Positions 1-12,722 of a stretch of DNA of 12,722 nucleotides are shown here, piece after piece. Below the pieces are notes generated by a model. That model had not been told where the DNA came from and made no database searches. It saw nothing but the letters and a program-made list of their open reading frames with translations. The stretch is from positions 1 to 12,722 of the IMG/VR virus record IMGVR_UViG_2711768053_000016. One strand, written 5' to 3'. A program made the translations under genes and the position numbers. Source of the DNA: a virus. Taxonomy: Duplodnaviria; Heunggongvirae; Uroviricota; Caudoviricetes. Within the stretch, counting starts at the first letter, position 1. Every line of letters begins with the position of its first letter.

Positions 1-933
1 TCAGCCCTTAAACACGTTATAGCCGAGTTGCTTAGCGACCGATGCCACCATTTTTTGACCGCGAACACTGTTGCCTTCTTCGTCCAGCGGTGGTGAGAAC
101 GCGGCAATTCCCATCACGCCAGGGACGACCGCCAGAATACCGCCACCTACACCGCTTTTGCCCGGTAAACCAACGCGATACGCCCAGTCACCGGAGCGAC
201 CATACAGCCCTTCCATCATCATTTCGGCCAGAATGTACGGCACGTTGTCGGCCTGAAGAACGCGTTCATGCGTCAGCGGATTCACACCCCCCGCCGCCAG
301 CGTCGCGCCAAGTGTTGCCAGTTCAACAGTATTGAGGAGCGTGGAGCACTGACGGGTGTACACGTCACAGGCTTCCATTGCATCACAATAGAGATATTCG
401 GCGGAGTACAGCAGCCAGGCAATGGCCCGGTTATGGAAGTTGGTTGTTTGTTCCGACTGGTTGACTTCGTCAGAGAGCGCTACCTGCTCACCAGCCAGTT
501 GCTGTTGGATATGTAAAATTCGCTGCCAGCGTTGTTCAACATTTTCAGCGTTAATCAGGCTGGTGGTGGCAATGGCGCCAGCATTTACCAGTGGCGAAAG
601 CGGTTTGCCGCCATGCAACTCTAAGGCGATAACTGAGTTAAAGGGCAATCCGGTCGGGTCAGCGCCAATTTTGTCCTGTACCGCCTGCGGGCCGACATCC
701 TCTAACGCAAGGGCTAACGTACAGACTTTCGAGATGGATTCCAGCGCAAAGCGGTAATCACTATCACCCGCGCGATAGATGTTGCCATCGCAGGTCACAA
801 TAGCCACTGCTGCCAGTTGACTAGGTACATTCGCCAGAAAGGGAATGTAGTCGGCATTTTGTCCGCCGTTAAGTGAGTGAAATTGGGTGTAAGCCTGATC
901 CACTGCCTGCTGTAATTTGTTTGCATCTAACAT
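1..933 (-). CDS. glsA: Glutaminase (serine-dependent, beta-lactamase-like fold), complete; stop codon at window bases 1-3
   Basis: 310-aa ORF; I recognise the protein as E. coli YbaS/GlsA1-like glutaminase from memory, including the S-x-x-K nucleophile motif (ESISKVC) and the C-terminal GLPGKSGVGGGI segment. GC-rich host-like composition. Confidence 0.9.
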   Translation of the reverse strand: MLDANKLQQAVDQAYTQFHSLNGGQNADYIPFLANVPSQLAAVAIVTCDGNIYRAGDSDYRFALESISKVCTLALALEDVGPQAVQDKIGADPTGLPFNSVIALELHGGKPLSPLVNAGAIATTSLINAENVEQRWQRILHIQQQLAGEQVALSDEVNQSEQTTNFHNRAIAWLLYSAEYLYCDAMEACDVYTRQCSTLLNTVELATLGATLAAGGVNPLTHERVLQADNVPYILAEMMMEGLYGRSGDWAYRVGLPGKSGVGGGILAVVPGVMGIAAFSPPLDEEGNSVRGQKMVASVAKQLGYNVFKG

Positions 934-1156
934 CTTTTGTTAACTCCTTTTTATAGATGCGGGAGGTAATTCCTCACCCCGGTGCCGATTTTCAGGCATC
1001 TTGATTTAACTTAGCACCCGCAACTTAACTTCAGGAAAACAAAGAGATAAATGTCTAATCCTGATGCAAATTGAGCCAATTTTTTAATCTTTACGGACTT
1101 TTACTCGCCTGGTTTATTAATTTCTTGACCTTCCCCTTGCTGGGAGGATCTCAATA

Positions 1157-1182
1157 GGCGCAGTACCGTAACATACTGCGCC
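1157..1182. other. Perfect 9-bp inverted repeat (GGCGCAGTA-n8-TACTGCGCC) just downstream of the integrase stop
   Basis: Seen directly in sequence. Lies in the glsA-int intergenic region where attL and/or the int terminator are expected; no U-tract follows on either strand, so function is uncertain. Confidence 0.4.
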
Positions 1183-1201
1183 AATTCAACATTTTACAGA
1201 C

Positions 1202-2224
1202 TTAACTACCCTCTAAAATCCCCACTTTGCCTCCAAAGTGTGGACACAATGTGGACATTCCTACAAGAGGATTATAATTCACTGCATCCAATAAATAATC
1301 AGGTGCAAAATGAGCATATGTCATTGTTTGTGAAATATCTGCGTGACCAAGAATTCTTTGTAACGCAATTATATTCCCGCCCTTCATCATAAAATGAGTA
1401 GCAAACGTATGACGCAATGCATGAGCTGCCTGACCATCAGGTAAATTAGGTTTTGCCTCTTTCATTTTTAAACGAAAAGTTTTGTAACTCACACGAAAAA
1501 GTCGACCAGATTCTCGATGCCTTACAATATTTACAACCTCCTCTGAAATGGGAACAACTCGCCGGTCGCCATTTTTTGTAAGCGTAAATATCACCCTATT
1601 ACCCACAATATTTTCCGCTTTGAGCTGATAAGCCTCACCCCACCTCGCACCAGTTGCAAGCAAGAGAACAGCAATCCGGAAATAATCACCAGTGCATAAG
1701 GATAATAACCGCTTAACCTCAGACTCGGTAAAGTAAGACATCTCAGTTTTTGGCTCTTTTAAAGCAGATATTGCCTCTACAGGATTATCCCCATGAAACT
1801 CATCGATCTCAGCCATCGCCTTAAACATACCGCTCAGAGCAAAAAGATCATGGTTAATCGTTGAAGCCTTTATACCTTGCCCCAATCTATATGCCCGGTA
1901 TTCGATAAGGCATCGACCATCAATCTGATAAATCATGGGATCCCCCATATCCTGGCAAATACAGCTTAACGCACTAAGCCTACGATTAGCGTAGTTCTTA
2001 TTACGTCCAATGAGCTGCCACCACAAAGCGATAAACTCACTCAGTCGCCGCTTGTCTGCAGGACGACTCAGGTAGTCATGGTTCTGATACTTTGCAATGA
2101 TGCTTCGTTCAAAAGCATGCGCCTCCGCTTTTCTCTCAAACTTCCGCCGGATACGCTTTCCGTCGCGCCCGCGCGGCCTTACATCCACTTCATAGCGACC
2201 ATCTTCGAGCTTCTTAACAGACAC
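1202..2224 (-). CDS. int: P2-type tyrosine integrase (site-specific recombinase)
   Basis: Recognisable similarity to P2 Int N-terminus (KKLEDGRYEVDVRPRGRDGKRIRRKF) and tyrosine-recombinase catalytic signature (GARWGEA ... HALRHTFATH ... LGHADISQTMTYAHF). Maximal ORF begins at ATG 2254; I prefer the GTG at 2224 because GGAGGG lies 7 nt upstream and the product then aligns with the P2 Int start. Confidence 0.9.
   Translation of the reverse strand: MSVKKLEDGRYEVDVRPRGRDGKRIRRKFERKAEAHAFERSIIAKYQNHDYLSRPADKRRLSEFIALWWQLIGRNKNYANRRLSALSCICQDMGDPMIYQIDGRCLIEYRAYRLGQGIKASTINHDLFALSGMFKAMAEIDEFHGDNPVEAISALKEPKTEMSYFTESEVKRLLSLCTGDYFRIAVLLLATGARWGEAYQLKAENIVGNRVIFTLTKNGDRRVVPISEEVVNIVRHRESGRLFRVSYKTFRLKMKEAKPNLPDGQAAHALRHTFATHFMMKGGNIIALQRILGHADISQTMTYAHFAPDYLLDAVNYNPLVGMSTLCPHFGGKVGILEGS
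1239..1257. repeat. Tandem direct repeat TGTGGACA-caa-TGTGGACA (11-bp spacing) inside the 3-prime end of int; candidate arm-type Int binding sites
   Basis: Repeat seen directly in sequence. Its role as arm sites is inference from P2-like attP architecture, where Int arm sites lie next to the int 3-prime end. Confidence 0.35.
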
Positions 2225-2293
2225 AAGAAGTCCCTCCAACAGTCTGTTCACCATCCTGAAAACAAATGGTGAAAATGTAATGTTTATAAAGCG

Positions 2294-2593
2294 TTAACCA
2301 ATCTGTTTCCCGGAGGGGCCAGATTGTGTTGTCTCTGGCCCAGTGTGTGCAAGAGCCGGGGCGATCTGACCTCGGCTAGGGTCTATACGGTCATACATGA
2401 ACCAATCTTGATACTTATGGAAACGGGGATGACCAAAGAGTTTGATCGCAGCCTCCAATGACATTTTCGCCTTGCCTAGCTCATAACCGTTGTACGTACC
2501 ATAATTTACACCAATCAAATCAGCAACTTGCTTAGATTTAAGGCGTTCTGAATCTCGGATTAACTGTAGTTTTTCATGTTGTGGTATTGACAT
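2294..2593 (-). CDS. P2 C-type immunity repressor (99 aa)
   Basis: Same length as P2 C and recognisable similarity (ADLIGVNYGTY..YELG, GQIAPALAH). Located between int and the divergent early operon as in P2. Confidence 0.8.
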   Translation of the reverse strand: MSIPQHEKLQLIRDSERLKSKQVADLIGVNYGTYNGYELGKAKMSLEAAIKLFGHPRFHKYQDWFMYDRIDPSRGQIAPALAHTGPETTQSGPSGKQIG

Positions 2594-2717
2594 AATATGT
2601 CAGATCTCTCATTGTATGCATCAATTGACACTCGCAAGCGGCGTTGACCGCTCATAACACCAAGGGCTTGCTTAGCTAAACATGCCTCAACAAGCCTCAA
2701 GCAGTGGAGTTTATCAA
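2594..2717. promoter_or_regulatory. Lysis/lysogeny switch region between C and the cox-like gene (expected Pc/Pe promoters and C operators)
   Basis: Position by analogy with P2/186. Contains TTGACA (2625-2630), a second TTGAC 19 bp downstream, and on the minus strand a TACAAT about 18 nt upstream of the C start. Exact promoter and operator assignments are not resolved. Confidence 0.5.
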
Positions 2718-3179
2718 ATGAAAGAAATGCGAGAAAACGAATTAAATATGGAAACTCATTTTTTACGTCAGTTCCCGCTAGACAACGGACGAGCTCTGCG
2801 TACCTGCAAAATGACAGAAACACAAGCTGCGCGTATCAGAGACATCAGCCTAGAAGAGCTACAAAAACAAATCTTCGCCACTCCGGAAGAGTTTGCTTAT
2901 CTAACTGGTCGCACCCTCAAATCGGTGCGCAACCTGATGGATCGTGCGCAGGTGCCAGTTCATAGAGAAGGCATGCCCGGGTCAAAGCGCCCTAAACGCT
3001 TCATCATGTTGCAAGAATACTGGAAAGCTGTTGCTCATTGCCGCGCTCTCATCACTCCAGAAGAAAAACACTACATTGATCGTCTGATGCGTGACAAGAA
3101 GACTTATCGCCGCACAACCGGTAAAGAGCATCGAGTTCTAAAACGCAATAGCATCAGTGCACTGCAGGCAGGACTATAA
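2718..3179 (+). CDS. Cox-like DNA-binding regulator/excisionase with a C-terminal extension (153 aa)
   Basis: First gene of the rightward operon. GGAG lies 8 nt upstream of ATG 2718 (the track ORF starts at ATG 2682). The pattern FAYLTGRT..VRNLMD..PV..EYW resembles P2 Cox (FAKLIGKS..VRRMID..PV..EYW), but the protein is longer than P2 Cox. Confidence 0.55.
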   Translation: MKEMRENELNMETHFLRQFPLDNGRALRTCKMTETQAARIRDISLEELQKQIFATPEEFAYLTGRTLKSVRNLMDRAQVPVHREGMPGSKRPKRFIMLQEYWKAVAHCRALITPEEKHYIDRLMRDKKTYRRTTGKEHRVLKRNSISALQAGL

Positions 3180-3181
3180 AC

Positions 3182-3595
3182 ATGAATACTGATAGCACAG
3201 CTAAAGCGCTACTGGAACGACTGGAAACCCTGAAAAACGAAAAACCACACCAGAAGCTTTTGCTGGTTTTTCCGGGCAAACCACAGGTTGAAATCAGCAT
3301 TGACTACCACGAATTACACAGAACGTTCGCTGACCTGATGGCATTTAAATCAAAGCTTCAGAATGGCGAAGATTTGAAAAATGTCACCCTACGTCCCGAC
3401 GATGAATACGGTCATTTTTGTCGAGATGACGTCAAAGAGACGATTGGAATGATTTTAGAACCAATATACGGCGTTGCGCTCCGTTTTCCCGCCAAAGAAG
3501 TCTTTGAGCTTTATCGACAAATTTTAAGCAGTGACAACATGGTTATTGAGGTCGGAAATGTGCCAGAGAAAATCTCCGGCACGGGAGTTAAATAA
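3182..3595 (+). CDS. Hypothetical protein (137 aa), early operon
   Basis: ORF begins 2 nt after the cox-like stop on the same strand. No recognisable motif. Confidence 0.6.
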   Translation: MNTDSTAKALLERLETLKNEKPHQKLLLVFPGKPQVEISIDYHELHRTFADLMAFKSKLQNGEDLKNVTLRPDDEYGHFCRDDVKETIGMILEPIYGVALRFPAKEVFELYRQILSSDNMVIEVGNVPEKISGTGVK

Positions 3596-3778
3596 TCACT
3601 CAGGGAAAGTCCATGTACTTGCCTGAGGATATTTTTCCAACGTGAGCTTACGCACTTCGTGCATAAGCTTACGAATGGTATTTGATGGCTCTCCTTTATT
3701 CGGAGGATTAACCGGCGCTTTCTCTAATACATAAATTGCCGCATTTAGCGCATCAATAACCTTTTTATCATAGGACAT
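3596..3778 (-). CDS. Hypothetical small protein (60 aa), oriented against the early operon
   Basis: ORF with AAGGA 7 nt upstream of its ATG on the minus strand. Its stop abuts the stop of the 3182..3595 gene (convergent, no spacer). No recognisable motif. Confidence 0.45.
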   Translation of the reverse strand: MSYDKKVIDALNAAIYVLEKAPVNPPNKGEPSNTIRKLMHEVRKLTLEKYPQASTWTFPE

Positions 3779-4281
3779 ATTTTATTCCTTTGTGGTTGGT
3801 TGAACACGCGCCCTTTACAGCCCCTTCAAGACTGCGGGCGGTGGAAAAATACCACAAAACCATGCGCCGGGCATGGCTAAAACCCGGCACAAATTCGCAA
3901 CAGCAGCAGGATATTTTTGTATGAAGCAACGACGTAATTCTTCACAGCAACGCTTCCGCAACGGGGCGGAACGCCACGCTAACCGTTTCGCTACCAGTGC
4001 ATCACGCAGCAGCTCTCGCTACAGCCTGAGTGATACACACGCAACGCCGGATGGCTACCCAGTAAAACAAATCGGCGAGCATGCCTAGCTGATTGAGAAA
4101 GCTGGAATCGTGGTCCACAAATGCCCACGCAATCCGCTTACCGGAAACCGCATTTTTGCATTGAGCTGCGGCGACAATCAGTTCGGGCAGGATTTCACAT
4201 TATACGAAGCACTTCGCACGGTTGATCGTCTGCTTCGCGGACAAAGTTTTATTAAACAGGTTGATTTATAACAGGTGATTT

Positions 4282-4560
4282 ATGACCAAAGAGTATGCAC
4301 AAGGTGTATTTATCCGTTTTATTGATTTTCGCGGTGAACTGTTATTACGCGCATCAGCCATTGACGGAGTTGTTCCATCCGAAAAAAACGCAGCTACTTA
4401 CGTTTATCTGAACGGTACGCGCCTGACTGTGGAGCTTCCGTACCAGACCGTACGAGAAATCATTAGCGAAGCTGAAAAGGCACGTCAGATTAATAGCGAT
4501 GAACCATACATCGAAATTATCTGCATGGATTCAAAAGCAGAAATCCAGAAGGCAGATTAA
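4282..4560 (+). CDS. Hypothetical protein (92 aa)
   Basis: ORF with AGGTGA immediately upstream; first gene after a roughly 500-bp non-coding gap. Confidence 0.6.
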   Translation: MTKEYAQGVFIRFIDFRGELLLRASAIDGVVPSEKNAATYVYLNGTRLTVELPYQTVREIISEAEKARQINSDEPYIEIICMDSKAEIQKAD

Positions 4561-4571
4561 AGGACGTTGCA

Positions 4572-4814
4572 ATGGACCAGGAATACAAAACTCTCGTCAA
4601 TAAAGCACTTGAGCGCTTTCATTTTCGCTTAAACACGTCAGGCCCCCACGCTGAACACGCAGCCCATGATTCATTAGCGAGGGCTATCAGAAGTCTTTAT
4701 GACGTAGCTTTTTACGCTGACGATTTGGATGCGATTAACGAGCTTTCCGAACTCGTCTGCGCCGCAGAATGCGGAGAACGCATTGAACCGTATAAGCTGG
4801 GGGATATCGCATGA
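4572..4814 (+). CDS. Hypothetical protein (80 aa)
   Basis: ORF with AAGGA 8 nt upstream, 11 nt after the preceding stop. Confidence 0.6.
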   Translation: MDQEYKTLVNKALERFHFRLNTSGPHAEHAAHDSLARAIRSLYDVAFYADDLDAINELSELVCAAECGERIEPYKLGDIA

Positions 4815-4924
4815 GTATATTTATCTCATGGCTTGTTCTGATTATTTCGGTGGTCTGCGCCATTGGGATTATGCGAATTATTCATTCAGTAAAAAAGATT
4901 GAACGTTTTTTCTCTGATGAATAA
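4811..4924 (+). CDS. Small hydrophobic peptide (37 aa, MSIFISWLVLIISVVCAIGIMRIIHSVKKIERFFSDE), predicted single TM helix with basic C-terminus
   Basis: Not in the supplied ORF track (too short). ATG overlaps the upstream stop (ATGA) and GGGGGA lies 7 nt upstream. Hydrophobic run of about 20 residues. Confidence 0.4.
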   Translation: MSIFISWLVLIISVVCAIGIMRIIHSVKKIERFFSDE

Positions 4925-5017
4925 CGATACAAATAAAACATCAAATTAAATAAGAAAACGTGAAAACCATCCGTATTAACGGAGGTATTCGCACACGCAA
5001 ATAACGGAGATATAAAA

Positions 5018-5428
5018 ATGCACGCAAAAGAAGAAGGTATCATCAGTGCACTGAAAGAAATTTCAAAGATGGAAAGCGAAGTAGCGAAAAAAGCCGTAGC
5101 AAATGATCATATAGACATCGCTACCCACGCAATGATAGTCACAAAAGTCACGGCAGAAGCCGCCAAAATCATCGAAGAACAGGGTGCGGAACTTACGCTT
5201 TTCAAAACTCAACCAGTCACCGGACTGGATTTATCTAACACCGGACGTCTTATTTACACAATTGGCTCGGAGCTACAGCGATACACCATTATCGCCGGAT
5301 TACAGGACAAATACCTGATCACTCCTCACCCCATAAGAGAATCAGAAATTCTGACAAATCTCCGCCTGATAGAGCGCTCTCAAGTTGCATTCATTGATGA
5401 CGCACAGCACACCGTATTTAACGCATAG
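5018..5428 (+). CDS. Hypothetical protein (136 aa)
   Basis: ORF with GGAG 8 nt upstream, after an AT-rich spacer. Confidence 0.6.
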   Translation: MHAKEEGIISALKEISKMESEVAKKAVANDHIDIATHAMIVTKVTAEAAKIIEEQGAELTLFKTQPVTGLDLSNTGRLIYTIGSELQRYTIIAGLQDKYLITPHPIRESEILTNLRLIERSQVAFIDDAQHTVFNA

Positions 5429-5451
5429 GGTTATTGGACAAAGGGGGCGCA

Positions 5452-5655
5452 ATGGCAATTAAGCATTTTCCCGTCGTTCGCTTTACCTCCAGAGGGCGCG
5501 AATACGAGGTCGACGAACGCCTGATTACAACTATCGACAAACATCGTTCGGAAAAGGATGCACACCACATCTACCTCACTGACGGCACTTACTTCTGCGC
5601 CACTAATGTGGTGCGGGTGAACCTTATCCGACAGGTACAAGAGTCACGCAGATGA
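5452..5655 (+). CDS. Hypothetical protein (67 aa)
   Basis: Track ORF begins at TTG 5434; I prefer ATG 5452, which has GGGGG 5 nt upstream. Stop overlaps the next start (ATGA). Confidence 0.5.
   Translation: MAIKHFPVVRFTSRGREYEVDERLITTIDKHRSEKDAHHIYLTDGTYFCATNVVRVNLIRQVQESRR
5617..5655. repeat. 39-bp direct repeat, copy 1 (GTGAACCTTATCCGACAGGTACAAGAGTCACGCAGATGA)
   Basis: 33 of 39 positions identical to copy 2 at 5999-6037. Both copies encode a C-terminal ..RQVQES.. tail and end in an ATGA stop/start overlap. Confidence 0.7.
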
Positions 5656-5918
5656 CCATTCTGGACTATATCGCTACTCATCCGGGTTGTAGCGGCGGAG
5701 AAATCGCCGCAGCACTGAATACTCCAACCACAGCCATTAATGCTGAGTTACGCCGACTTTGGCGCAGCGGCTTAGTCATCAGAACAAACCGCAGCACAGG
5801 TGGTCACGCTCGCAAAACAGGAGGCCGGGCTTCTTACCACGTAAACCCGATGCCGTTCGGGTGTGGCAACCCACTAACCCACATGTTTAACCAGCTACTG
5901 AAGGAAGCCAGAGCATGA
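5652..5918 (+). CDS. Putative winged-helix DNA-binding protein (88 aa)
   Basis: N-terminal pattern LDYIATHPGCSGGEIAAAL....AELRRLWRSGLVIR is typical of small wHTH regulators. Start and stop both overlap neighbouring genes. Confidence 0.5.
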   Translation: MTILDYIATHPGCSGGEIAAALNTPTTAINAELRRLWRSGLVIRTNRSTGGHARKTGGRASYHVNPMPFGCGNPLTHMFNQLLKEARA

Positions 5919-6037
5919 GCACCATCAACCACCAGGAACCACGCGAACTGACGACTGCCGTACAAAGAATGTCTACCCAAAAATCACTGCCATTCCGTGT
6001 GAGCCCTGTCCGACAGGTACAGGAGTCACACGGATGA
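5915..6037 (+). CDS. Small ORF (40 aa), possible remnant or duplicated gene tail
   Basis: Not in the ORF track. Its last 12 codons are copy 2 of the 39-bp repeat; translationally coupled on both sides. Could be non-functional. Confidence 0.3.
   Translation: MSTINHQEPRELTTAVQRMSTQKSLPFRVSPVRQVQESHG
5999..6037. repeat. 39-bp direct repeat, copy 2 (GTGAGCCCTGTCCGACAGGTACAGGAGTCACACGGATGA)
   Basis: See copy 1; spacing between copies is 382 bp. Confidence 0.7.
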
Positions 6038-6252
6038 ACAGAAGGAGAATTACACGCAGACATCGCCGCACACGCCTGAGCTCCCCGCCAACACTAAAGG
6101 AACTCATTCAAAGCGAGATCGGTGATTTCTTCGCTGGGTTTGGATCACCTGGCGAACCAGAAACACCAGAAGCGATGCAGCGCGAACTCATGATGCGCAT
6201 CGATAACGTTTTTGACTTTTTCCTGAATAACAAAAGAGAGCAACCGACATGA
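6034..6252 (+). CDS. Hypothetical protein (72 aa) with arginine-rich N-terminus (MNRRRITRRHRRTR) and acidic C-terminal half
   Basis: ORF translationally coupled upstream and downstream. The Arg-rich motif suggests nucleic-acid binding; this is inference only. Confidence 0.55.
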   Translation: MNRRRITRRHRRTRLSSPPTLKELIQSEIGDFFAGFGSPGEPETPEAMQRELMMRIDNVFDFFLNNKREQPT

Positions 6253-6452
6253 ACGAAAGGACCTGGTTTCGCGCATACATGTGGGCGCTGGTATGCGCCC
6301 TCTTTTCTCTCATTCTGTATGCAGGACTACTCCCCCGAATGATTTCATCAGACAGCTCCTTCCTGGTATTGCTGGGCATTTTCATTGCCATGCTGTACCC
6401 GGCAGGCGTTGTTCGCCTTTTCAGTAAGTACATCAAGGAAATCAAACAATGA
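6249..6452 (+). CDS. Small integral membrane protein (67 aa, two predicted TM helices)
   Basis: Two hydrophobic segments (WALVCALFSLILYAGLL and FLVLLGIFIAMLYPAGVV). Stop overlaps the start of the SPFH gene (ATGA). Confidence 0.6.
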   Translation: MNERTWFRAYMWALVCALFSLILYAGLLPRMISSDSSFLVLLGIFIAMLYPAGVVRLFSKYIKEIKQ

Positions 6453-7279
6453 AGAAATTCAAACTCTTTCAGATTCTCCCGCTTTTTGCCGCCATCCTGC
6501 TGGTTGGTTGCGATCGCGTTGAGCCAGGTAATGTGGGCATCAAAGTCAACAAACTGGGCGACGACAAAGGCGTCGGCGAAGTAGTTGGCGTTGGCCGCTA
6601 CTGGACAGGCTGGAATACAGAGGTTTACATCTTCCCGACCTTCAAACAAATGAAGACCTACGATGAGCCGTTCAGCTTTCAGATGAGTGACGGCACAACC
6701 ATCGGCTATCACATCGGTGTGGCCTACAAGGTTGATCCATCCAAAGTTACCACAGTGTTTCAGACCTACCGCAAAGGCGTGGATGACATTACCGACACTG
6801 ACCTGCGCCAGAAGATCGCCGATGCACTCAACCGACTGGCCAGCAAAATGACCACCGATAAGTTTATCGACGGTGGTAAGTCTGAACTGCTGGATTCAGC
6901 ACTTAAAGATATTCAGGAAGAGATGACCCCCATCGGCATTCAGGTCATGAGCCTCTCTTATGTCGGTAAACCGGAATATCCGCCAACCGTTATCGACAGC
7001 ATTAACGCCAAAGTCACGGCAAACCAGAAAACCCTGCAACGCGAACAGGAAGTCAAGCAACGCGAAGCAGAAGCCAACATGCTGCGCGCAGAAGCTGCCG
7101 GACAGGCTGATGCCATTCGCACAAAAGCCCAGGCTGAAGCCGACGCCATTCGTTTACGCGGTGAAGCTCTGCGCCAGAATCCCGGCGTTATGGAGCTGGA
7201 AGCAATCAACAAATGGAACGGCACGCTACCGCAATACATGACCAGCAATACCGCTGTTCCGTTTGTTCCGGTGAAGTAA
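6449..7279 (+). CDS. SPFH/band-7 (stomatin/prohibitin/HflKC-like) lipoprotein (276 aa)
   Basis: N-terminal signal peptide with lipobox LLVGC. SPFH-like entry motif (VEPGNVGIKVNKLG), followed by an Ala/Glu/Arg/Gln-rich coiled-coil segment (EAEANMLRAEAAGQADAIRTKAQAEADAIRLRGEA) typical of HflK/HflC-type proteins. Family assignment from memory of the domain signature, not a search. Confidence 0.75.
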   Translation: MKKFKLFQILPLFAAILLVGCDRVEPGNVGIKVNKLGDDKGVGEVVGVGRYWTGWNTEVYIFPTFKQMKTYDEPFSFQMSDGTTIGYHIGVAYKVDPSKVTTVFQTYRKGVDDITDTDLRQKIADALNRLASKMTTDKFIDGGKSELLDSALKDIQEEMTPIGIQVMSLSYVGKPEYPPTVIDSINAKVTANQKTLQREQEVKQREAEANMLRAEAAGQADAIRTKAQAEADAIRLRGEALRQNPGVMELEAINKWNGTLPQYMTSNTAVPFVPVK

Positions 7280-7285
7280 TTAAAC

Positions 7286-7330
7286 CCGGCCAGTGAAAAT
7301 CGCTGGCCGGAGCAGTATCAGGATTTTTTT
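7286..7330 (+). terminator. Hairpin (CCGGCCAG-n9-CTGGCCGG) followed 13 nt later by a T7 run; possible terminator of the early/cargo operon
   Basis: Perfect 8-bp GC-rich stem starts 7 nt after the SPFH stop. The U-tract is not immediately adjacent to the stem, so efficiency is uncertain. Confidence 0.4.
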
Positions 7331-7447
7331 AGCATGCCGTTCTCACAAAAAAACCGCTTGCCATGCCGCAATCAGTCAGGTTACATTTCCGCTGCACCTC
7401 ATAAAACGGGTGCCGGGTTTCGCAGCCTGCTGATCAACAAAGCGCAC

Positions 7448-7468
7448 AACCGCGCCAGCGGTTTTTTT
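7448..7468 (+). terminator. Compact hairpin (AACCGC-GCCA-GCGGTT) immediately followed by T7; intrinsic-terminator-like
   Basis: Seen directly in sequence. Lies in a roughly 320-bp stretch with no convincing coding potential. Confidence 0.45.
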
Positions 7469-7650
7469 GTGCGTACCGCATTGCCGCACATTTTTTCGCA
7501 TCAGAATTATGGTGGGGCGTACGGGGCCGACTTCGGTCGGGCCGGGTTTTCTTTGTTGACCGGTACTGCGAACCTCGTACGTCTCGCCACCCACAGTTTC
7601 GCAGCTCTGGATGGCGAGTATTTAAAACTTACCAACAAAGAGGCCACACC

Positions 7651-7881
7651 ATGGCAAACCGCAAACAGCACCGCGCTATCGCGGAGCGTCGTCACATCCA
7701 GACTGAAATCGATCGCAGACTCACCCGCGCTGCACACATCGCCTTTATCATGCAATCCAACACATTGCACAGACTCAACAGCACTATTTCAGCCGACTAC
7801 TGCGCCGCTGTATTCAGCTATCTGGCGGAAGACCTCCTGTCTCTTCAGGATCTCATCCAGCAGCAAAACAAACTCCATTAA
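7651..7881 (+). CDS. Hypothetical protein (76 aa)
   Basis: AAAGAGG lies 7 nt upstream of the ATG. Overlaps, in another frame, the long track ORF 7334..8320, whose upstream part I consider non-coding. Confidence 0.5.
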   Translation: MANRKQHRAIAERRHIQTEIDRRLTRAAHIAFIMQSNTLHRLNSTISADYCAAVFSYLAEDLLSLQDLIQQQNKLH

Positions 7882-7954
7882 TCCCTGTTCCGGGCCTTTC
7901 CTGCACCTTGCGGCGGGAGGCCTTCGCACATCTGTAGTAAAGAGGATTGCCGCA

Positions 7955-8320
7955 ATGATTCTCGCCAACGACTTTCTTGAATACCTGCTCAACACAGAGC
8001 GTGATCTTGCCGTTCGCGTGCGTGACCGTTATGACATGTACCTGAAATCCCTGCCCGCACCGCAGCTCGCTGACGGAAAAATTGTTATTGATGGTCGCTA
8101 CATGATTGACAGCCACGAGGGGAATTACAGGCTTTACCGCATTGAAGGCGGCACCCCGTCCGTTATTGGCATTTACCAGCGCCCATCCTCTGCGATCGTC
8201 GATGTGATTGCCGACAGCATCCGCATCACACACCACCATGCCGACACAGAAGACACTGTGCTGGAGATTCAGCGGCTGGCTGCCGTTTGCCGTGACACTC
8301 TGAATGGCATGACGAAGTAA
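7955..8320 (+). CDS. Hypothetical protein (121 aa) immediately upstream of the replication gene
   Basis: Internal ATG of the track ORF 7334..8320, with AAAGAGGA 9 nt upstream. Ends 6 nt before the gpA-like start. Confidence 0.55.
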   Translation: MILANDFLEYLLNTERDLAVRVRDRYDMYLKSLPAPQLADGKIVIDGRYMIDSHEGNYRLYRIEGGTPSVIGIYQRPSSAIVDVIADSIRITHHHADTEDTVLEIQRLAAVCRDTLNGMTK

Positions 8321-8326
8321 ATCAGT

Positions 8327-11149
8327 ATGACGACAGAGTACATCAGGGACTGGCAACAACCGCGCCACGCAGTAGGACGTGAAGGAACGGAGATCCCCGC
8401 ACCTGAATCCGCACTTTCCTCCTGGCTGGATGCCTACCGGGCAGAGAACGAACGCCGCCAGGAAATGGCTGATGCGGCGTTCTCCGCCACACCGCTGGGC
8501 AACCTGATTAATAAAAGCCTGGACGCACAGGAAAAACAGGACAAAACCATCACACTGGCAGGAGACGCCAGAAAGCAGGCACGCGGCGCGGTGGATGAAG
8601 CCATGGCCTCGCTGCGCCTGCTGCCGTCCTATCTGCGCGATCCGCTTATTCGCCACCTCTCCTTCCTGCGCAAAAAACAGGAAGCTGATCGCCGGAAAGG
8701 CAAAAAGAGCTGGCAGGCTGAACGCTACGCGCGCGGAACCCTGCGCAAAATATTCGAACGCCTGGACCGCACCGACCACCGCTGGCTGACACCGGGTTAT
8801 CGCTCCCTTGCCGGACGCGAACGCCTGGACGATTTGCTTTACCTGCCGCAGCTCAACAAACACCAGATACAGACGCTGGCCACCATGACGGCGGCGATGT
8901 TCAGCAGCACCTTCGAAAAACTCTGCGATGGCTTTGGCGCGACCGATGGCGAACTGACCATGGATGTAACGCTGAAGGCGTATCAGATGCTGGCCCGCAT
9001 GGCGTTACACCTGCACATCATGCCTCCACATTATGACGCACTGACAACAGATAAAGACCGGAGGAACGAACCGGACACGGAGCTGCTGCCGGGCGCAATC
9101 CTTCGCCTGACCTGTGCGGAATGGTGGAAACGCAAACTGTGGCTGTTACGTTGCGAGTGGAGAGAAGAACAACTCCGCGCCGCCTGTCTGGTTTCCAGAA
9201 AAACATCACCCTATCTGAGCCAGGACGCGTTAAGCGAGTTTCGCGCACAGCGCGAGAAAACACGCGATTTCCTGAAAAGTTTCATGCTGGAAAATGAAGA
9301 CGGGTTCACGATTGATCTCGAGACAGTGTATTACGCGGGAGTAAGTAACCCGGTTCACCGTAAGGCAGAAATGATGGCCACCATGAAGGGACTGGAACTT
9401 CTGGCCGAAGCCCGTGGCGACAGAGCGGTGTTTCTGACTGTCACCTGCCCGTCAAAATACCACGCAACAACGGAGAACGGTCATCCGAACCCCAAATGGA
9501 ACGGGGCCACCATGCGCGACTCCAGCGATTACCTGGTTAACACGTTTTTTGCGGCGGTCCGCAAAAAACTGAACCGCGACGGCCTGCGCTGGTATGGCAT
9601 CCGCACGGTGGAGCCTCACCATGACGGCACCGTGCACTGGCATATGATGGTCTTTGCTCATCCGGAAGAAATCGACAGCATCGTGGCCATCACCCGCGAT
9701 ATTGCCATTCAGGAAGACCGCCACGAGCTGGGCAATGATATTACTCCGCGCTTTAAGGTGGAGTATGTCGACGGCTCCAAAGGCACACCAACCAGCTATA
9801 TCGCGACCTACATCGGAAAAAACCTGGACAGCCGCGCCGTGGATGGCATCGACCCGAAAACGGGCAAGCCACGCGTTGACCACGAAACCGGAAAATCAAT
9901 GGCCGAGAGTGTGGAACGCGCCATCGGCTGGGCGCGCCTTCACCGAGTCCGCCAGTTCCAGTTCTTTGGCATCCCCTCCCGTCAGGTATGGCGTGAACTC
10001 CGCCGCCTTGCCAGCCAGATGGCACGCAACCCGGAAGGCCCACAACGGCTGAAGGATGATGCAATGGATGCGGTACTCGCTGCCGCTGATGCCGGGTGTT
10101 TTGCCACCTACATTGAGAAACAGGGCGGCGTACTTGTTCCACGCAAAGACTACCTGATTCGCACCGCCTACAACCTCGCAGATGAGCTGAACGATTACGG
10201 CGAACAGAGCGTACAGATTTACGGGATCTGGTCACCACTCATCGGGGAATCCTCCCGTGTGTGCACGCACCCGGATAACTGGAAGCTGGTAAGACGTAAA
10301 CCGGAAGCGGAAGACAGCACCCGCGAAAATGGTTTTGACCTTCAGGGCGGCCCTGCCGCCCCTTGGACTCGTGGCAATAACTGTCCCCGTGTACAGGAAA
10401 CGGACAACAACGGGACAGAACAGCCGGAAGAACGGCCAGCACCGTGGCCGCAGCTCCCTGACGGCGTTGAAGTGAACGAATGGATGCGCTCACTGAAACG
10501 GCACGAACGCCGGGCGCTGATGCGTTCGCTTCGTGCCAAACAGGCAAAAAACAGCAGTGATGAAATGCAGAGCTGGACACAGAGCCACAAACAGCAGCGG
10601 CCTTTGCCTGATAACCACGAATTACTCGCTAAAGAATGGCGGGAATCTGCCGAATCTCTCGGCCTGCATATCGGTGAACAGCAGATGCAGCACCTGTTAC
10701 GGGGCGGCAGCCTGTACGTTGACGGCAGCATCATTGCACCGCAGGGATTTGAAATTGTACGCAAACCGGATACCCGCCCGGACAGCCGAATCACGCAGCT
10801 CTGGCAGCGCCTGAGCCGTAATCACGGCGTAAGCAGCACGGAGATCCGCCATAACCCGGTCGCCAGCTATCTGGAACAGCTGGGGGCATCAGACCCCGAA
10901 GCCGCCGCACGTCTGGCATCCACACTTCAGCAGGACCAGAACACCATGAAAACCCCCGTTACCGTGCTTTCTGACATGCTGCGCGCCATCCGTGACGCAG
11001 AGCACGCACAGAGAATCAGTGAAACCACTGAACGCGCCCACCGCAAAGCAGACCTGCTGCGGGGTAGCCTGACCAGTGGAAACAAAAAACAGACAGAAAC
11101 GGGATTCACAAATCCCGTAAATGAGCAAAAAACGTGCCGCGATATATGA
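8327..11149 (+). CDS. P2 gpA-family rolling-circle replication initiator (HUH endonuclease), 940 aa
   Basis: Rolling-circle initiator motifs in order: AVFLTVTCPSKYH (motif 1), HDGTVHWHMMVF (HUH, His437/His439), and SYIATYIGKN with two tyrosines 4 residues apart (Tyr491/Tyr495). Position at the end of the early operon matches P2 gene A; the protein is longer than P2 gpA. Confidence 0.85.
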   Translation: MTTEYIRDWQQPRHAVGREGTEIPAPESALSSWLDAYRAENERRQEMADAAFSATPLGNLINKSLDAQEKQDKTITLAGDARKQARGAVDEAMASLRLLPSYLRDPLIRHLSFLRKKQEADRRKGKKSWQAERYARGTLRKIFERLDRTDHRWLTPGYRSLAGRERLDDLLYLPQLNKHQIQTLATMTAAMFSSTFEKLCDGFGATDGELTMDVTLKAYQMLARMALHLHIMPPHYDALTTDKDRRNEPDTELLPGAILRLTCAEWWKRKLWLLRCEWREEQLRAACLVSRKTSPYLSQDALSEFRAQREKTRDFLKSFMLENEDGFTIDLETVYYAGVSNPVHRKAEMMATMKGLELLAEARGDRAVFLTVTCPSKYHATTENGHPNPKWNGATMRDSSDYLVNTFFAAVRKKLNRDGLRWYGIRTVEPHHDGTVHWHMMVFAHPEEIDSIVAITRDIAIQEDRHELGNDITPRFKVEYVDGSKGTPTSYIATYIGKNLDSRAVDGIDPKTGKPRVDHETGKSMAESVERAIGWARLHRVRQFQFFGIPSRQVWRELRRLASQMARNPEGPQRLKDDAMDAVLAAADAGCFATYIEKQGGVLVPRKDYLIRTAYNLADELNDYGEQSVQIYGIWSPLIGESSRVCTHPDNWKLVRRKPEAEDSTRENGFDLQGGPAAPWTRGNNCPRVQETDNNGTEQPEERPAPWPQLPDGVEVNEWMRSLKRHERRALMRSLRAKQAKNSSDEMQSWTQSHKQQRPLPDNHELLAKEWRESAESLGLHIGEQQMQHLLRGGSLYVDGSIIAPQGFEIVRKPDTRPDSRITQLWQRLSRNHGVSSTEIRHNPVASYLEQLGASDPEAAARLASTLQQDQNTMKTPVTVLSDMLRAIRDAEHAQRISETTERAHRKADLLRGSLTSGNKKQTETGFTNPVNEQKTCRDI
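11099..11118. promoter_or_regulatory. Perfect palindrome ACGGGATT-caca-AATCCCGT (site 1), overlapping the last codons of the replication gene
   Basis: Seen directly in sequence. Near-identical site 2 lies 73 bp downstream, directly upstream of parM; candidate ParR operator or centromere half. Confidence 0.4.
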
Positions 11150-11171
11150 AGCGCGCACAAAACAGGCAAAA

Positions 11172-11191
11172 ACGGGATTTCAGAATCCTGT
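11172..11191. promoter_or_regulatory. Palindrome ACGGGATT-tcag-AATCCTGT (site 2), 35-54 nt upstream of the parM start
   Basis: One mismatch from a perfect palindrome. Flanks match site 1 (AAACGGGATT ... GTAAA). Position is consistent with a parC-like autoregulatory/centromere site. Confidence 0.4.
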
Positions 11192-11225
11192 AAACGATTA
11201 ATTAATCAACATAAGGAAAAGCGAC

Positions 11226-12185
11226 ATGAAAATTTGTATCGACGACGGCTCCACCAACATCAAGCTGGCATGGACTGAGAACGGCGAACGCCGCAACGCC
11301 ATCAGCCCGAACAGCTTCAAGTCGGAATGGTCTGCGCCGTTCGGTGGCACGCAGCCCGCGAACTACATGCTTGATGGCGTGCGCTATGGTTTTGATCCGG
11401 TCAGCGATCGCTTTGTCCAGACGACCGACACGCAATACCAGTACAGCGATGTGAATGTCATTGCCATTCATCACGCGCTGGTCAAATCAGGCATCACGCC
11501 ACAGGAGGTGGATGTGGTTGTCACCCTGCCACTGAGCGAGTATTTCGACACAAACGCACAACCGGACATGGCCAACATCAACCGCAAAAAAGCGAACGTT
11601 ATGCGCCCGGTGGAGTACCAGAACGGCGAGGCATTCACTATCCGTAACGTGCGGGTTATGCCTGAATCCATTCCGGCTGGCTTTAAAGCACTGGCTGACA
11701 TGAGTCCGTTTGAATCCCTGCTGATTGTGGATTTGGGCGGAACCACGCTGGATGTGGCAAAGGTTCAGGGGCAACTGGCAGGTATCAGCCAGGTGTTTTG
11801 CGATCCACACGTAGGCGTTTCTCTGATGGCCGGTGCCGTGCTGTCGGTGATGGCCACCAACGGTATGCGTACCAGTCACCACATCGCTAATACCATTATC
11901 GAACATCGCCACGATGAAGCCTGGCTGCGCCAGCACATCCACAATAACGCACATTACGCCAGCCTGATGGCAGTTATTCGTGAAAAGGAGGAAACACTGA
12001 AACAACGCGTGATCCGCGCGCTGGCGGGTTTTTCGGGTTACGGGCGGGTGATGGTTGTAGGTGGAGGAGCGGAGATTGTGGCACCCGCTATCCGCGAAGC
12101 CTGCGGAGTTAATGCGACTTTCATCGCGGACGGGGTGCCACAGTTTGCTCTGGTTAATGGGCTGTACGCAATGGATAAGGAGTAA
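11226..12185 (+). CDS. parM: Actin-like segregation ATPase, ParM/StbA family (319 aa)
   Basis: Recognisable similarity to plasmid R1 ParM (from memory): MKICIDDGSTNIKLAW (phosphate-1), VMPESIPAG, LIVDLGGTTLD (phosphate-2), VMVVGGGAE (adenosine motif). AAGGA RBS upstream. Confidence 0.85.
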   Translation: MKICIDDGSTNIKLAWTENGERRNAISPNSFKSEWSAPFGGTQPANYMLDGVRYGFDPVSDRFVQTTDTQYQYSDVNVIAIHHALVKSGITPQEVDVVVTLPLSEYFDTNAQPDMANINRKKANVMRPVEYQNGEAFTIRNVRVMPESIPAGFKALADMSPFESLLIVDLGGTTLDVAKVQGQLAGISQVFCDPHVGVSLMAGAVLSVMATNGMRTSHHIANTIIEHRHDEAWLRQHIHNNAHYASLMAVIREKEETLKQRVIRALAGFSGYGRVMVVGGGAEIVAPAIREACGVNATFIADGVPQFALVNGLYAMDKE

Positions 12186-12189
12186 ATCA

Positions 12190-12504
12190 ATGACGACACC
12201 AACCAGACGGATAAGTTTCTATCTGAAGCCCGCCGTCGTCAAGAGCGAACGGGAGGCGTGCAGTTACCTCGACAGCCTGCCAGCCTCCGAACGCAGCCGC
12301 GCACAACGCGCGGCTTTTCTGGCCGGACTGGCTCTTATAAAACGCATCCCCGCGTTGGCGTATTCGCTGGCAGAATGGTCAGAAGACGAAATAAGGATGC
12401 CACCGCTACCAGTACAGCCTGAAAAACCGGCGCAACCAGCAGCAGACTGCGCCCCCCATATGCAGCAGGTGAAGAAGAATATTCAGGCGTTTTTTCCGAA
12501 GTGA
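12190..12504 (+). CDS. parR: ParR/StbB-family centromere-binding protein (104 aa)
   Basis: N-terminus RRISFYLKPAVVKSEREACSYLDSLPASERSRAQRAAFLAGLAL parallels R1 ParR (RRTIAFKLNP...DTLDSIPQGERSRLNRAALTAGLAL, from memory). ATG 12190 has AAGGAG upstream and sits 5 nt after the parM stop; the track's longer ORF (12061) would overlap parM and is rejected. Confidence 0.75.
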   Translation: MTTPTRRISFYLKPAVVKSEREACSYLDSLPASERSRAQRAAFLAGLALIKRIPALAYSLAEWSEDEIRMPPLPVQPEKPAQPAADCAPHMQQVKKNIQAFFPK

Positions 12505-12518
12505 AAACAGGAGTAACT

Positions 12519-12722
12519 ATGTCCACCATTACCAAAGAATGGTTACAACGTAAAATCACAGAGTTTAAATCGTGGCGCGAAGACATCCCGTTCGGTCTTG
12601 ATGAAGACGATCACAATATGTTAATCGCACTGGAAATCGCACTTGCATCACTGGAAGCAGAGCCAGTGGCATGGATGCACGCAAATAATCCTATTGGAAT
12701 GCCGGCGATAACAAGAAGTAAA
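12519..12722 (+). CDS. Hypothetical protein, 5-prime portion only (68 codons; continues beyond window)
   Basis: ATG 12519 with GGAG 8 nt upstream; open to the window end. No recognisable motif in the visible part. Confidence 0.5.
   Translation, partial: MSTITKEWLQRKITEFKSWREDIPFGLDEDDHNMLIALEIALASLEAEPVAWMHANNPIGMPAITRSK

Follow-up and report, generated by a model that had tools for sequence, protein, structure and literature searches.

Why should a phage that integrates into its host chromosome keep a plasmid-type partition cassette directly downstream of its replication gene? The question is raised by IMG/VR virus record IMGVR_UViG_2711768053_000016, of which we analyzed positions 1 to 12,722 (12,722 nucleotides, here called the window; position 1 is its first letter), and which by its sequence is part of a P88-like (Xuanwuvirus, P2-family, Peduoviridae) prophage with about 95% DNA identity in this region to Escherichia phage P88 and other Xuanwuvirus phages. 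A preliminary description of this DNA reported a complete type II ParM/ParR cassette directly after gene A, the gene for the replication endonuclease gpA, placed it in a locus known for variable cargo in P2-like phages, and offered a phage-plasmid lifestyle or co-option for a function such as exclusion of incoming DNA as explanations. We find that the cassette is a conserved backbone component of the P88-like phages and not random hotspot cargo, that it is intact as a type II (ParMRC) partition operon, and we think it probable that its substrate is the transient, gpA-replicated circular form of the phage genome.

The first gene of the cassette, parM, encodes a member of the ParM/StbA family of actin-fold ATPases whose nucleotide-binding motifs are intact. 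Its product matches the Pfam families StbA_N (PF06406) and ParM C-terminal domain (PF21523) with expectation values (E) of 1.8e-82 and 9.3e-68, respectively, aligns over residues 2–316 with the R1 ParM structure 1mwk (E 1.8e-92), and shares 47% identity along its whole length with the StbA/ParM protein of an IncF plasmid (R1/IncF type). A search of NCBIfam gave sub-threshold matches only. The motifs DDGST, DLGGTT and GGGA are invariant throughout the ParM clade to which it belongs (below), and dN/dS values for the E. coli and Salmonella copies are 0.03–0.13, so that ParM is under strong purifying selection.

Directly 3′ of parM lies the gene for a ParR-like (StbB-type) adaptor, which matches PF10784 (Plasmid_stab_B) with E 7.3e-24. 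The hidden Markov model searches thus bore out both family assignments of the preliminary description. The true start of parR is the ATG at 12190, which is preceded by an AAGGAG ribosome-binding site; the start at 12061 of the program-made open reading frame is not the real one. The protein is 43% identical to R1-type StbB/ParR over residues 1–63, and a profile built from its clade matches the pB171 ParR structure 2jd3 (E 1.1e-8, residues 7–73), the sole solved structure matched; the single ParR sequence reaches only E 0.008 against 2jd3, pairwise similarity being low. On these profile matches the N-terminus of ParR is predicted to be a ribbon-helix-helix DNA-binding domain. When 19 diverged ParRs are aligned, the N-terminal strand (RRISFYLKP) is invariant and is followed by helices, a hypervariable linker, and a conserved C-terminal tail (...KKNIQAFFPK), in which N97, F102 and P103 are the same in all 19 sequences. 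Residues 90–101 of this tail are predicted to be helical in a structure model, and the tail resembles that of R1 ParR (...ETKKNAMKLIN in R1, ...QVKKNIQAFFPK in the phage protein).

Repeated cis sites are present 5′ of parM. The pattern ACGGGATT-N4-AATCCCGT occurs exactly at 11099–11118 and with one mismatch (AATCCTGT) at 11172–11191, in agreement with the two near-identical 20-bp palindromes, 73 bp apart, of the preliminary description. No further match with up to 3 mismatches was found in the window, and two matches were seen in none of 200 shuffles, which shows the dyads to be non-random. The start-to-start spacing of 73 bp corresponds to about 7 helical turns, and the dyads form the cores of two longer direct-repeat units of 42 nt, which are 79% identical and have the same spacing; the interval 11094–12504 that had been proposed for the module does cover it, except that it begins 11 nt into the first of these units. 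Dyad 1 falls within gene A and not between genes, 29–50 nt 5′ of the stop codon, and the last 17 codons of gene A double as the distal ParR-type dyad.

The layout of this site is conserved well beyond the E. coli phages. Pairs of GGG-N10-CCC motifs with a spacing of 72 or 73 bp are found upstream of parM in the E. coli group, in Hafnia and in Plesiomonas (positions in Table 1), and the DNA between the dyads is unrelated among these three lineages; the distal dyad lies in the end of the gpA gene in two of them and in a different, 167-codon open reading frame in Hafnia. Two such motifs occurred in at most 25 of 20,000 shuffles, and the pair is present in none of 65 upstream regions of plasmid-type parM genes. 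Variation among about 80 close relatives is found in the spacer and the outer bases and seldom in the GGG/CCC cores, and a TTAATCAA box is kept in the window, Hafnia and Plesiomonas. The Serratia and Enterobacter phages have another layout, a large dyad of the form GGGAAC-N4-ATAGAAAAAT ... ATTTTTCTRT-N3-GTTCCC with about 28 bp between its arms, which has the CAGGCAAAAACGGGA left edge in common with the E. coli site. We consider the phage site to be a likely two-dyad variant of a ParR centromere, to which ParR would bind.

Could the palindromes be something other than a centromere, either minus-strand terminators or a plain operator at which ParR serves only as repressor? Dyad 1 is indeed terminator-like on the minus strand (an 8-bp stem and then a T-rich run), the hairpins in the window fold at −9 to −11 kcal/mol, and dyad 2 overlaps a putative −35 element. 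The Hafnia and Plesiomonas dyads, however, lack T-runs and stable hairpins (−4.6 kcal/mol, z about 0; a 4-bp stem with a 10-nt loop), yet keep the geometry and the spacing, and because their hairpins are unstable the conserved property is a duplex protein-binding geometry and not a hairpin or terminator. The terminator/hairpin reading was rejected on these comparative grounds; moreover, no minus-strand gene ends at the dyads, and Rfam gave no credible family match at the site. An operator role is compatible with a centromere role, since R1 parC is both operator and centromere. We regard a purely non-centromeric function as most unlikely.

The operator question touches on the promoter. A putative weak sigma-70 promoter of parMR (Table 1) has its −35 hexamer inside the spacer of dyad 2, and a looser weight-matrix scan places this arrangement at or near the top in the E. 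coli group and Hafnia. The consensus match is weak, and the overlap of promoter and cis site is a proposal at the level of consensus.

How the cassette is distributed bears on whether it is cargo or backbone. The module is present in 1303 of the 5426 complete E. coli genomes that formed our survey set (24%), among them O157:H7 EDL933, O104:H4, 55989 and ST131. When compared with P88-type gene A (3′ half, at least 80% coverage), it was found in 1278 genomes against 1356 with that gene, a linkage of about 94%; from these counts the cassette travels with P88-type gene A and does not behave as variable cargo. The order gpA-parM-parR holds in E. coli, Salmonella, Hafnia, Plesiomonas, Serratia and Enterobacter, so that the comparison with related prophages that had been suggested came out in favor of a fixed arrangement across six genera. 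The ParMs of the last four are 54–62% identical to that of the window and all lie in P2-like prophages, in which the order is gpA, parM, parR, variable genes and then ogr/portal; small open reading frames stand between gpA and parM in Hafnia (one) and Enterobacter (two).

The boundary with the variable region can be placed in or just beyond the cassette. DNA similarity to most relatives breaks inside parR, at window positions 12332–12387, and the ParR alleles diverge; the variable hotspot therefore begins within or after parR. Across the ParR alleles the N-terminal strand and the C-terminal tail are kept, and the dyads stay the same whichever allele is present. The preliminary description was thus right that the locus belongs to a P2 cargo hotspot, that between gpA and gpQ, which is rich in anti-phage systems in P2-like phages (Rousset 2022), but the cassette itself, by its linkage to gpA, its presence in six genera and the single clade of its ParMs (below), is backbone. 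As a separate observation, ParR is mosaic in the E. coli and Salmonella prophages, where its allele groups are 53–91% identical while their ParMs are 97–99% identical.

A scan of species-representative genomes gave a sharp division: every ParM of at least 54% identity had gpA within 4 kb upstream, and none of those of 53% identity or less did; one of the latter that was inspected lies beside ParA on a plasmid-like contig. In a neighbor-joining tree (without bootstrap) the ParMs linked to gpA group as one clade within the plasmid-type ParMs, and both genes and the two-site layout are kept down to 54% ParM and 41–45% ParR identity. This pattern is consistent with one ancient acquisition from a plasmid, after which selection kept the cassette for a long time. 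A scan of viral contigs returned only ParMs of at least 98% identity, which are useful for population variation and not for distant comparison, and a metagenome scan led by a Hafnia/Plesiomonas alignment returned plasmid-type loci and one E. coli-type locus, with no new diverged phage-type loci.

Three further sets of ParM loci deserve mention in their own right. The Apirhabdus apintestini plasmid CP138907.1, a true plasmid with a Rep3 initiator and umuDC, carries at 3992–5269 a frameshifted ParM and a short StbB-like open reading frame; the N-terminal part of this ParM is 62% identical to that of the window, as close as the diverged phage copies, and may represent a relative of the phage clade on a plasmid. 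Enterobacterial-type ParM loci also occur in assemblies labeled Vagococcus, Streptomyces, Clostridiales, Lachnospiraceae and Micromonospora, one of them a P88-like prophage with 97% ParM identity, and these are probably contamination or misbinning. Finally, ParM-ParR pairs with no gpA within 4 kb upstream are present on chromosome-labeled records or multi-Mb scaffolds of Klebsiella, Rahnella and Enterobacter, one amid ordinary metabolic and chaperone genes and another near a ParB-domain protein; they may represent integrated elements of another kind, or else plasmid sequence that scaffolding joined to chromosomes.

The distribution also bears on whether these elements are facultative or stable phage-plasmids, that is, whether they live as low-copy plasmids instead of, or in alternation with, the integrated state. 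A complete partition module adjoins the replication gene, and in P88 and its relatives the partition genes are accompanied by a full P2-type virion set, replication being by the rolling-circle nuclease gpA of the phage. This hypothesis has been put forward twice: a partition system was reported in about a quarter of E. coli P2-like phages, with plasmid maintenance as the proposed role (Rousset 2022), and P88 was listed among putative phage-plasmids, with “episomal and integrative states” suggested (Pfeifer 2021). There is also one deposited plasmid of the expected kind, NZ_CP148288.1 (E. coli plasmid pZ1323PEC0009-2), a circle of 34,461 bp that comprises a complete P88-like phage genome, with genes for integrase, ParM and ParR. 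On the other side, 1441 of the 1443 module copies in the complete E. coli genomes are chromosomal, and only 7 of 72,556 plasmids in PLSDB match, five of them being records of 0.2–1.4 Mb and one, a Shigella “plasmid”, a linear phage fragment ridden with insertion sequences. NZ_CP148288.1 is the only phage-sized circular record found, and it is equally well explained as a real episome or as DNA excised by spontaneous induction and assembled separately. Replication would depend on gpA, whose gene in P2-type phages is part of the repressed early operon. No intact attP junction was seen in any of the 33 genomes that have the P88-type att region, the integrase was always present in the P88-like elements examined, and the relative PhiSM integrates into pdxB when it lysogenizes K-12. 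The distribution thus does not show extrachromosomal upkeep in lysogens, the normal state is unlikely to be a stable plasmid prophage, contrary to what had been suggested for this element, and we judge the phage-plasmid explanation as a whole to be unlikely.

The other explanation offered at the outset was that the cassette is defense or exclusion cargo, acting on incoming phages or plasmids through ParR/parC incompatibility or through mis-positioning of foreign DNA. Extra copies of parC or ParR do cause incompatibility in plasmids, and the neighborhood is that of a hotspot rich in anti-phage systems. Nevertheless, neither ParM nor ParR matched any PADLOC defense model, and the presence of the cassette is tied to the type of gpA and conserved across genera, unlike that of hotspot cargo; the cassette thus has neither the similarity to defense families nor the variable presence of cargo between gpA and gpQ. 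Cross-talk with IncF plasmids is also unlikely, since the predicted DNA-facing strand of the phage ParR is RRISFYLKP and that of R1 is RRTIAFKLNP. Defense or exclusion therefore seems to us very unlikely.

We return to the type II partition operon. That it is a working ParMRC system is well supported by the sequence comparisons above, and a manner in which it would work can be proposed. The N-terminal ribbon-helix-helix domain of ParR would bind the two GGG-N10-CCC dyads that straddle the end of gene A, and binding at the proximal dyad, which overlaps the likely −35 element of parMR, would make the operon autoregulated. The conserved C-terminal tail of ParR would capture ATP-ParM filaments, and these would push apart DNA molecules that bear the site. 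Because the prophage is normally integrated, the substrate should be an extrachromosomal circle, namely the circular phage genome after infection or excision and during its replication by gpA, and the phage circles would be distributed to both daughter cells or through the cell. The outcome could be a guard against loss of the excised prophage, support of efficient replication, or both, and would not be a permanent plasmid prophage; the evidence favors neither an anti-loss nor a replication-positioning role over the other. A more specific version, in which the two-dyad ParMRC separates or positions monomeric circles made by gpA and thereby improves replication and packaging, or prevents curing after an abortive induction, is put forward tentatively, as a possibility that falls short of being probable. 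Why an integrating phage keeps ParMRC may thus be sought in the transient episome.

Several observations weigh against this reading. In some E. coli lineages shortened ParMs are frequent, forming clusters of 188–261 amino acids with hundreds of members each, and such truncation means that the function is dispensable for the resident prophage. An AlphaFold2 monomer model of ParR, made from a 24-sequence alignment, is of low confidence (predicted local distance difference test score 59) and had no structural match when compared by Foldseek with the PDB, and for this reason the ParR fold is claimed from sequence profiles only; a weak model is expected when an obligate dimer is modeled as a monomer. 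There are two specific dyads only, compared with arrays of 4–10 or more repeats in the well-studied ParR centromeres, and with so few the assembly of a filament-capturing complex is hypothetical. When half-sites and helical phasing were sought, AAAC(G) motifs showed weak enrichment in the window and Hafnia and not in Plesiomonas. A stricter consensus scan upstream of parM reported no promoter.

The truncated alleles also speak for a selfish or relic hitchhiker, a plasmid par cassette that was captured once and is useless to the phage, and it is true that the nearest relatives outside the clade are plasmid ParMs (53% identity or less). Strong purifying selection on ParM, the retention of both genes and the two-site layout over the whole range of ParM and ParR divergence given above, and the tight linkage to gpA all argue in the opposite direction, and we consider a useless passenger quite unlikely.

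Table 1. Features of the window and positions of paired motifs upstream of parM in three lineages.
Feature	Position	Strand	Remarks
Host glutaminase gene	1–933	−	Left end of window
Tyrosine integrase	1202–2254	−	
CI-like helix-turn-helix repressor	2294–2593	−	
Gene A (replication endonuclease gpA, 940 amino acids)	8327–11149	+	Phage_GPA PF05840, E 4.8e-131
Centromere-like repeat unit 1, 42 nt	11083–11124	.	Dyad core ACGGGATTcacaAATCCCGT at 11099–11118
Centromere-like repeat unit 2, 42 nt	11156–11197	.	Dyad core ACGGGATTtcagAATCCTGT at 11172–11191
Putative weak sigma-70 promoter of parMR	11179–11206	+	−35 TTCAGA 11179–11184, 16-nt spacer, −10 ATTAAT 11201–11206
parM (actin-like segregation ATPase, 319 amino acids)	11226–12185	+	Pfam StbA_N and ParM C-terminal domain
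parR (StbB-type adaptor, 104 amino acids)	12190–12504	+	PF10784 (Plasmid_stab_B), E 7.3e-24
First open reading frame after parR, cut at window end	12519–12722	+	phrog_660, E 1.6e-16, unknown function
GGG-N10-CCC pair, E. coli group	−125 / −52 from parM ATG		Spacing 73 bp
GGG-N10-CCC pair, Hafnia	−128 / −55 from parM ATG		Spacing 73 bp
GGG-N10-CCC pair, Plesiomonas	−131 / −59 from parM ATG		Spacing 72 bp

The remainder of the window places the cassette in its element (Table 1). A rightward early operon follows the repressor, and its last gene is gene A. A scan of 10800–11226 found no plus-strand terminator between gene A and parM, and read-through from the early operon into parMR is therefore likely. 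The Phage_GPA domain occupies residues 179–503 of gpA, and the C-terminal ~440 residues have no family match. The integrase/repressor end beside the host glutaminase gene, positions 1–3950, is absent from most E. coli relatives, in which the DNA match begins at 3950, and two open reading frames within it (2682–3179 and 3182–3595) have no Pfam match; by sequence, then, the window is a different immunity/integration module on a common replication/partition backbone. In the early operon, 6249–7279 encodes a small membrane protein (phrog_1130), with a weak match to the candidate defense model PDC-M18B (E 0.0066), and then an SPFH/Band-7 protein (PF01145, E 5.7e-31); the two could be a membrane-associated accessory or abortive-infection pair. 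Just 5′ of gene A, 7334–8320 encodes a 328-amino-acid protein whose N-terminus resembles a regulator (phrog_995) and whose C-terminus has no known function (phrog_3237), and the counterpart position in P88 holds a “derepression protein” and a small open reading frame. The open reading frame that follows parR after a gap of 14 nt probably shares a transcription unit with parMR. It is the start of the variable cargo region between gpA and gpQ, and the genes of relatives at this position differ (an RrF2 regulator, HicAB, a KAP NTPase and others).

Parts of this picture are already known. The records of Xuanwuvirus phages annotate the two genes as “plasmid segregation protein ParM” and “partition protein”, there is a “partition protein” family in PHROGs for each of them, and the module and the plasmid-maintenance hypothesis have been published (above); in the literature on P88, Xuanwuvirus and CP-933T we found no experimental study of the module. 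What is added here is the two-dyad site and its conservation, the recognition of a single phage ParM clade linked to gpA, and a distribution that argues against a stable plasmid state. If the more specific version of the proposed role is correct, the cassette would be the first demonstrated case of an actin-based system for genome positioning in a Gram-negative tailed phage, and one that about a quarter of E. coli strains possess: some 24% of the complete genomes carry this operon, which is under strong purifying selection. The two-dyad site would define a minimal ParR centromere, and the answer would tell whether transient prophage episomes are actively segregated, as are the SXT/R391 integrative and conjugative elements, or whether their circles are positioned for replication, as is that of CGP3. 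The question is directly testable, since inducible, plaque-forming members of the group exist (P88 and PhiSM).

Among known systems, the closest in organization is the ParMRC (StbA/StbB/parC) of the IncF plasmids R1 and NR1, which has the same order of centromere, parM and parR, a ParR with the same C-terminal KKN-x3-hydrophobic tail, and a similarly A-rich, strand-asymmetric upstream region with CCC-containing sites. R1-type parC differs in consisting of two blocks of tandem ~11-bp direct repeats with ACCC cores that flank the promoter, whereas the phage has two 20-bp dyads 73 bp apart, one of them inside the upstream coding sequence; the predicted DNA-facing strand residues of the two ParRs also differ, and the replicon is an integrating phage and not a plasmid. 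The ParR of pB171 par2, whose N-terminal domain is a ribbon-helix-helix, is alike at the level of the profile match and unlike in its low pairwise similarity. The module of the window recurs at about 95% DNA identity, directly after the replication endonuclease gene, in P88 (gp17/gp18) and in other phages and prophages of Xuanwuvirus, PhiSM among them, but the ParR of P88 is only 53% identical (ParM 99%), and the immunity/integration module of the window is different too. The remark in the preliminary description that an integrated element has no obvious need of segregation is qualified by two systems that have been tested by experiment. SrpMRC stabilizes the excised, replicating form of the SXT/R391 elements and stabilized a test plasmid, and SrpR binds direct and inverted repeats upstream of srpM; as an actin-type partition system on a normally chromosomal element it offers the closest functional parallel to a transient episome, although SrpR has no recognizable similarity to ParR, SrpM is only structurally related to ParM, and the element is conjugative and not a phage. 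AlpAC of the Corynebacterium prophage CGP3 ties the excised circle to actin-like filaments, is induced early, and must be present for the phage to replicate efficiently once induced; it belongs to another actin-like family, with a Gram-positive host and an unrelated adaptor, but here too an integrated prophage encodes an actin-like protein and an adaptor that binds upstream of its own operon (alpS).

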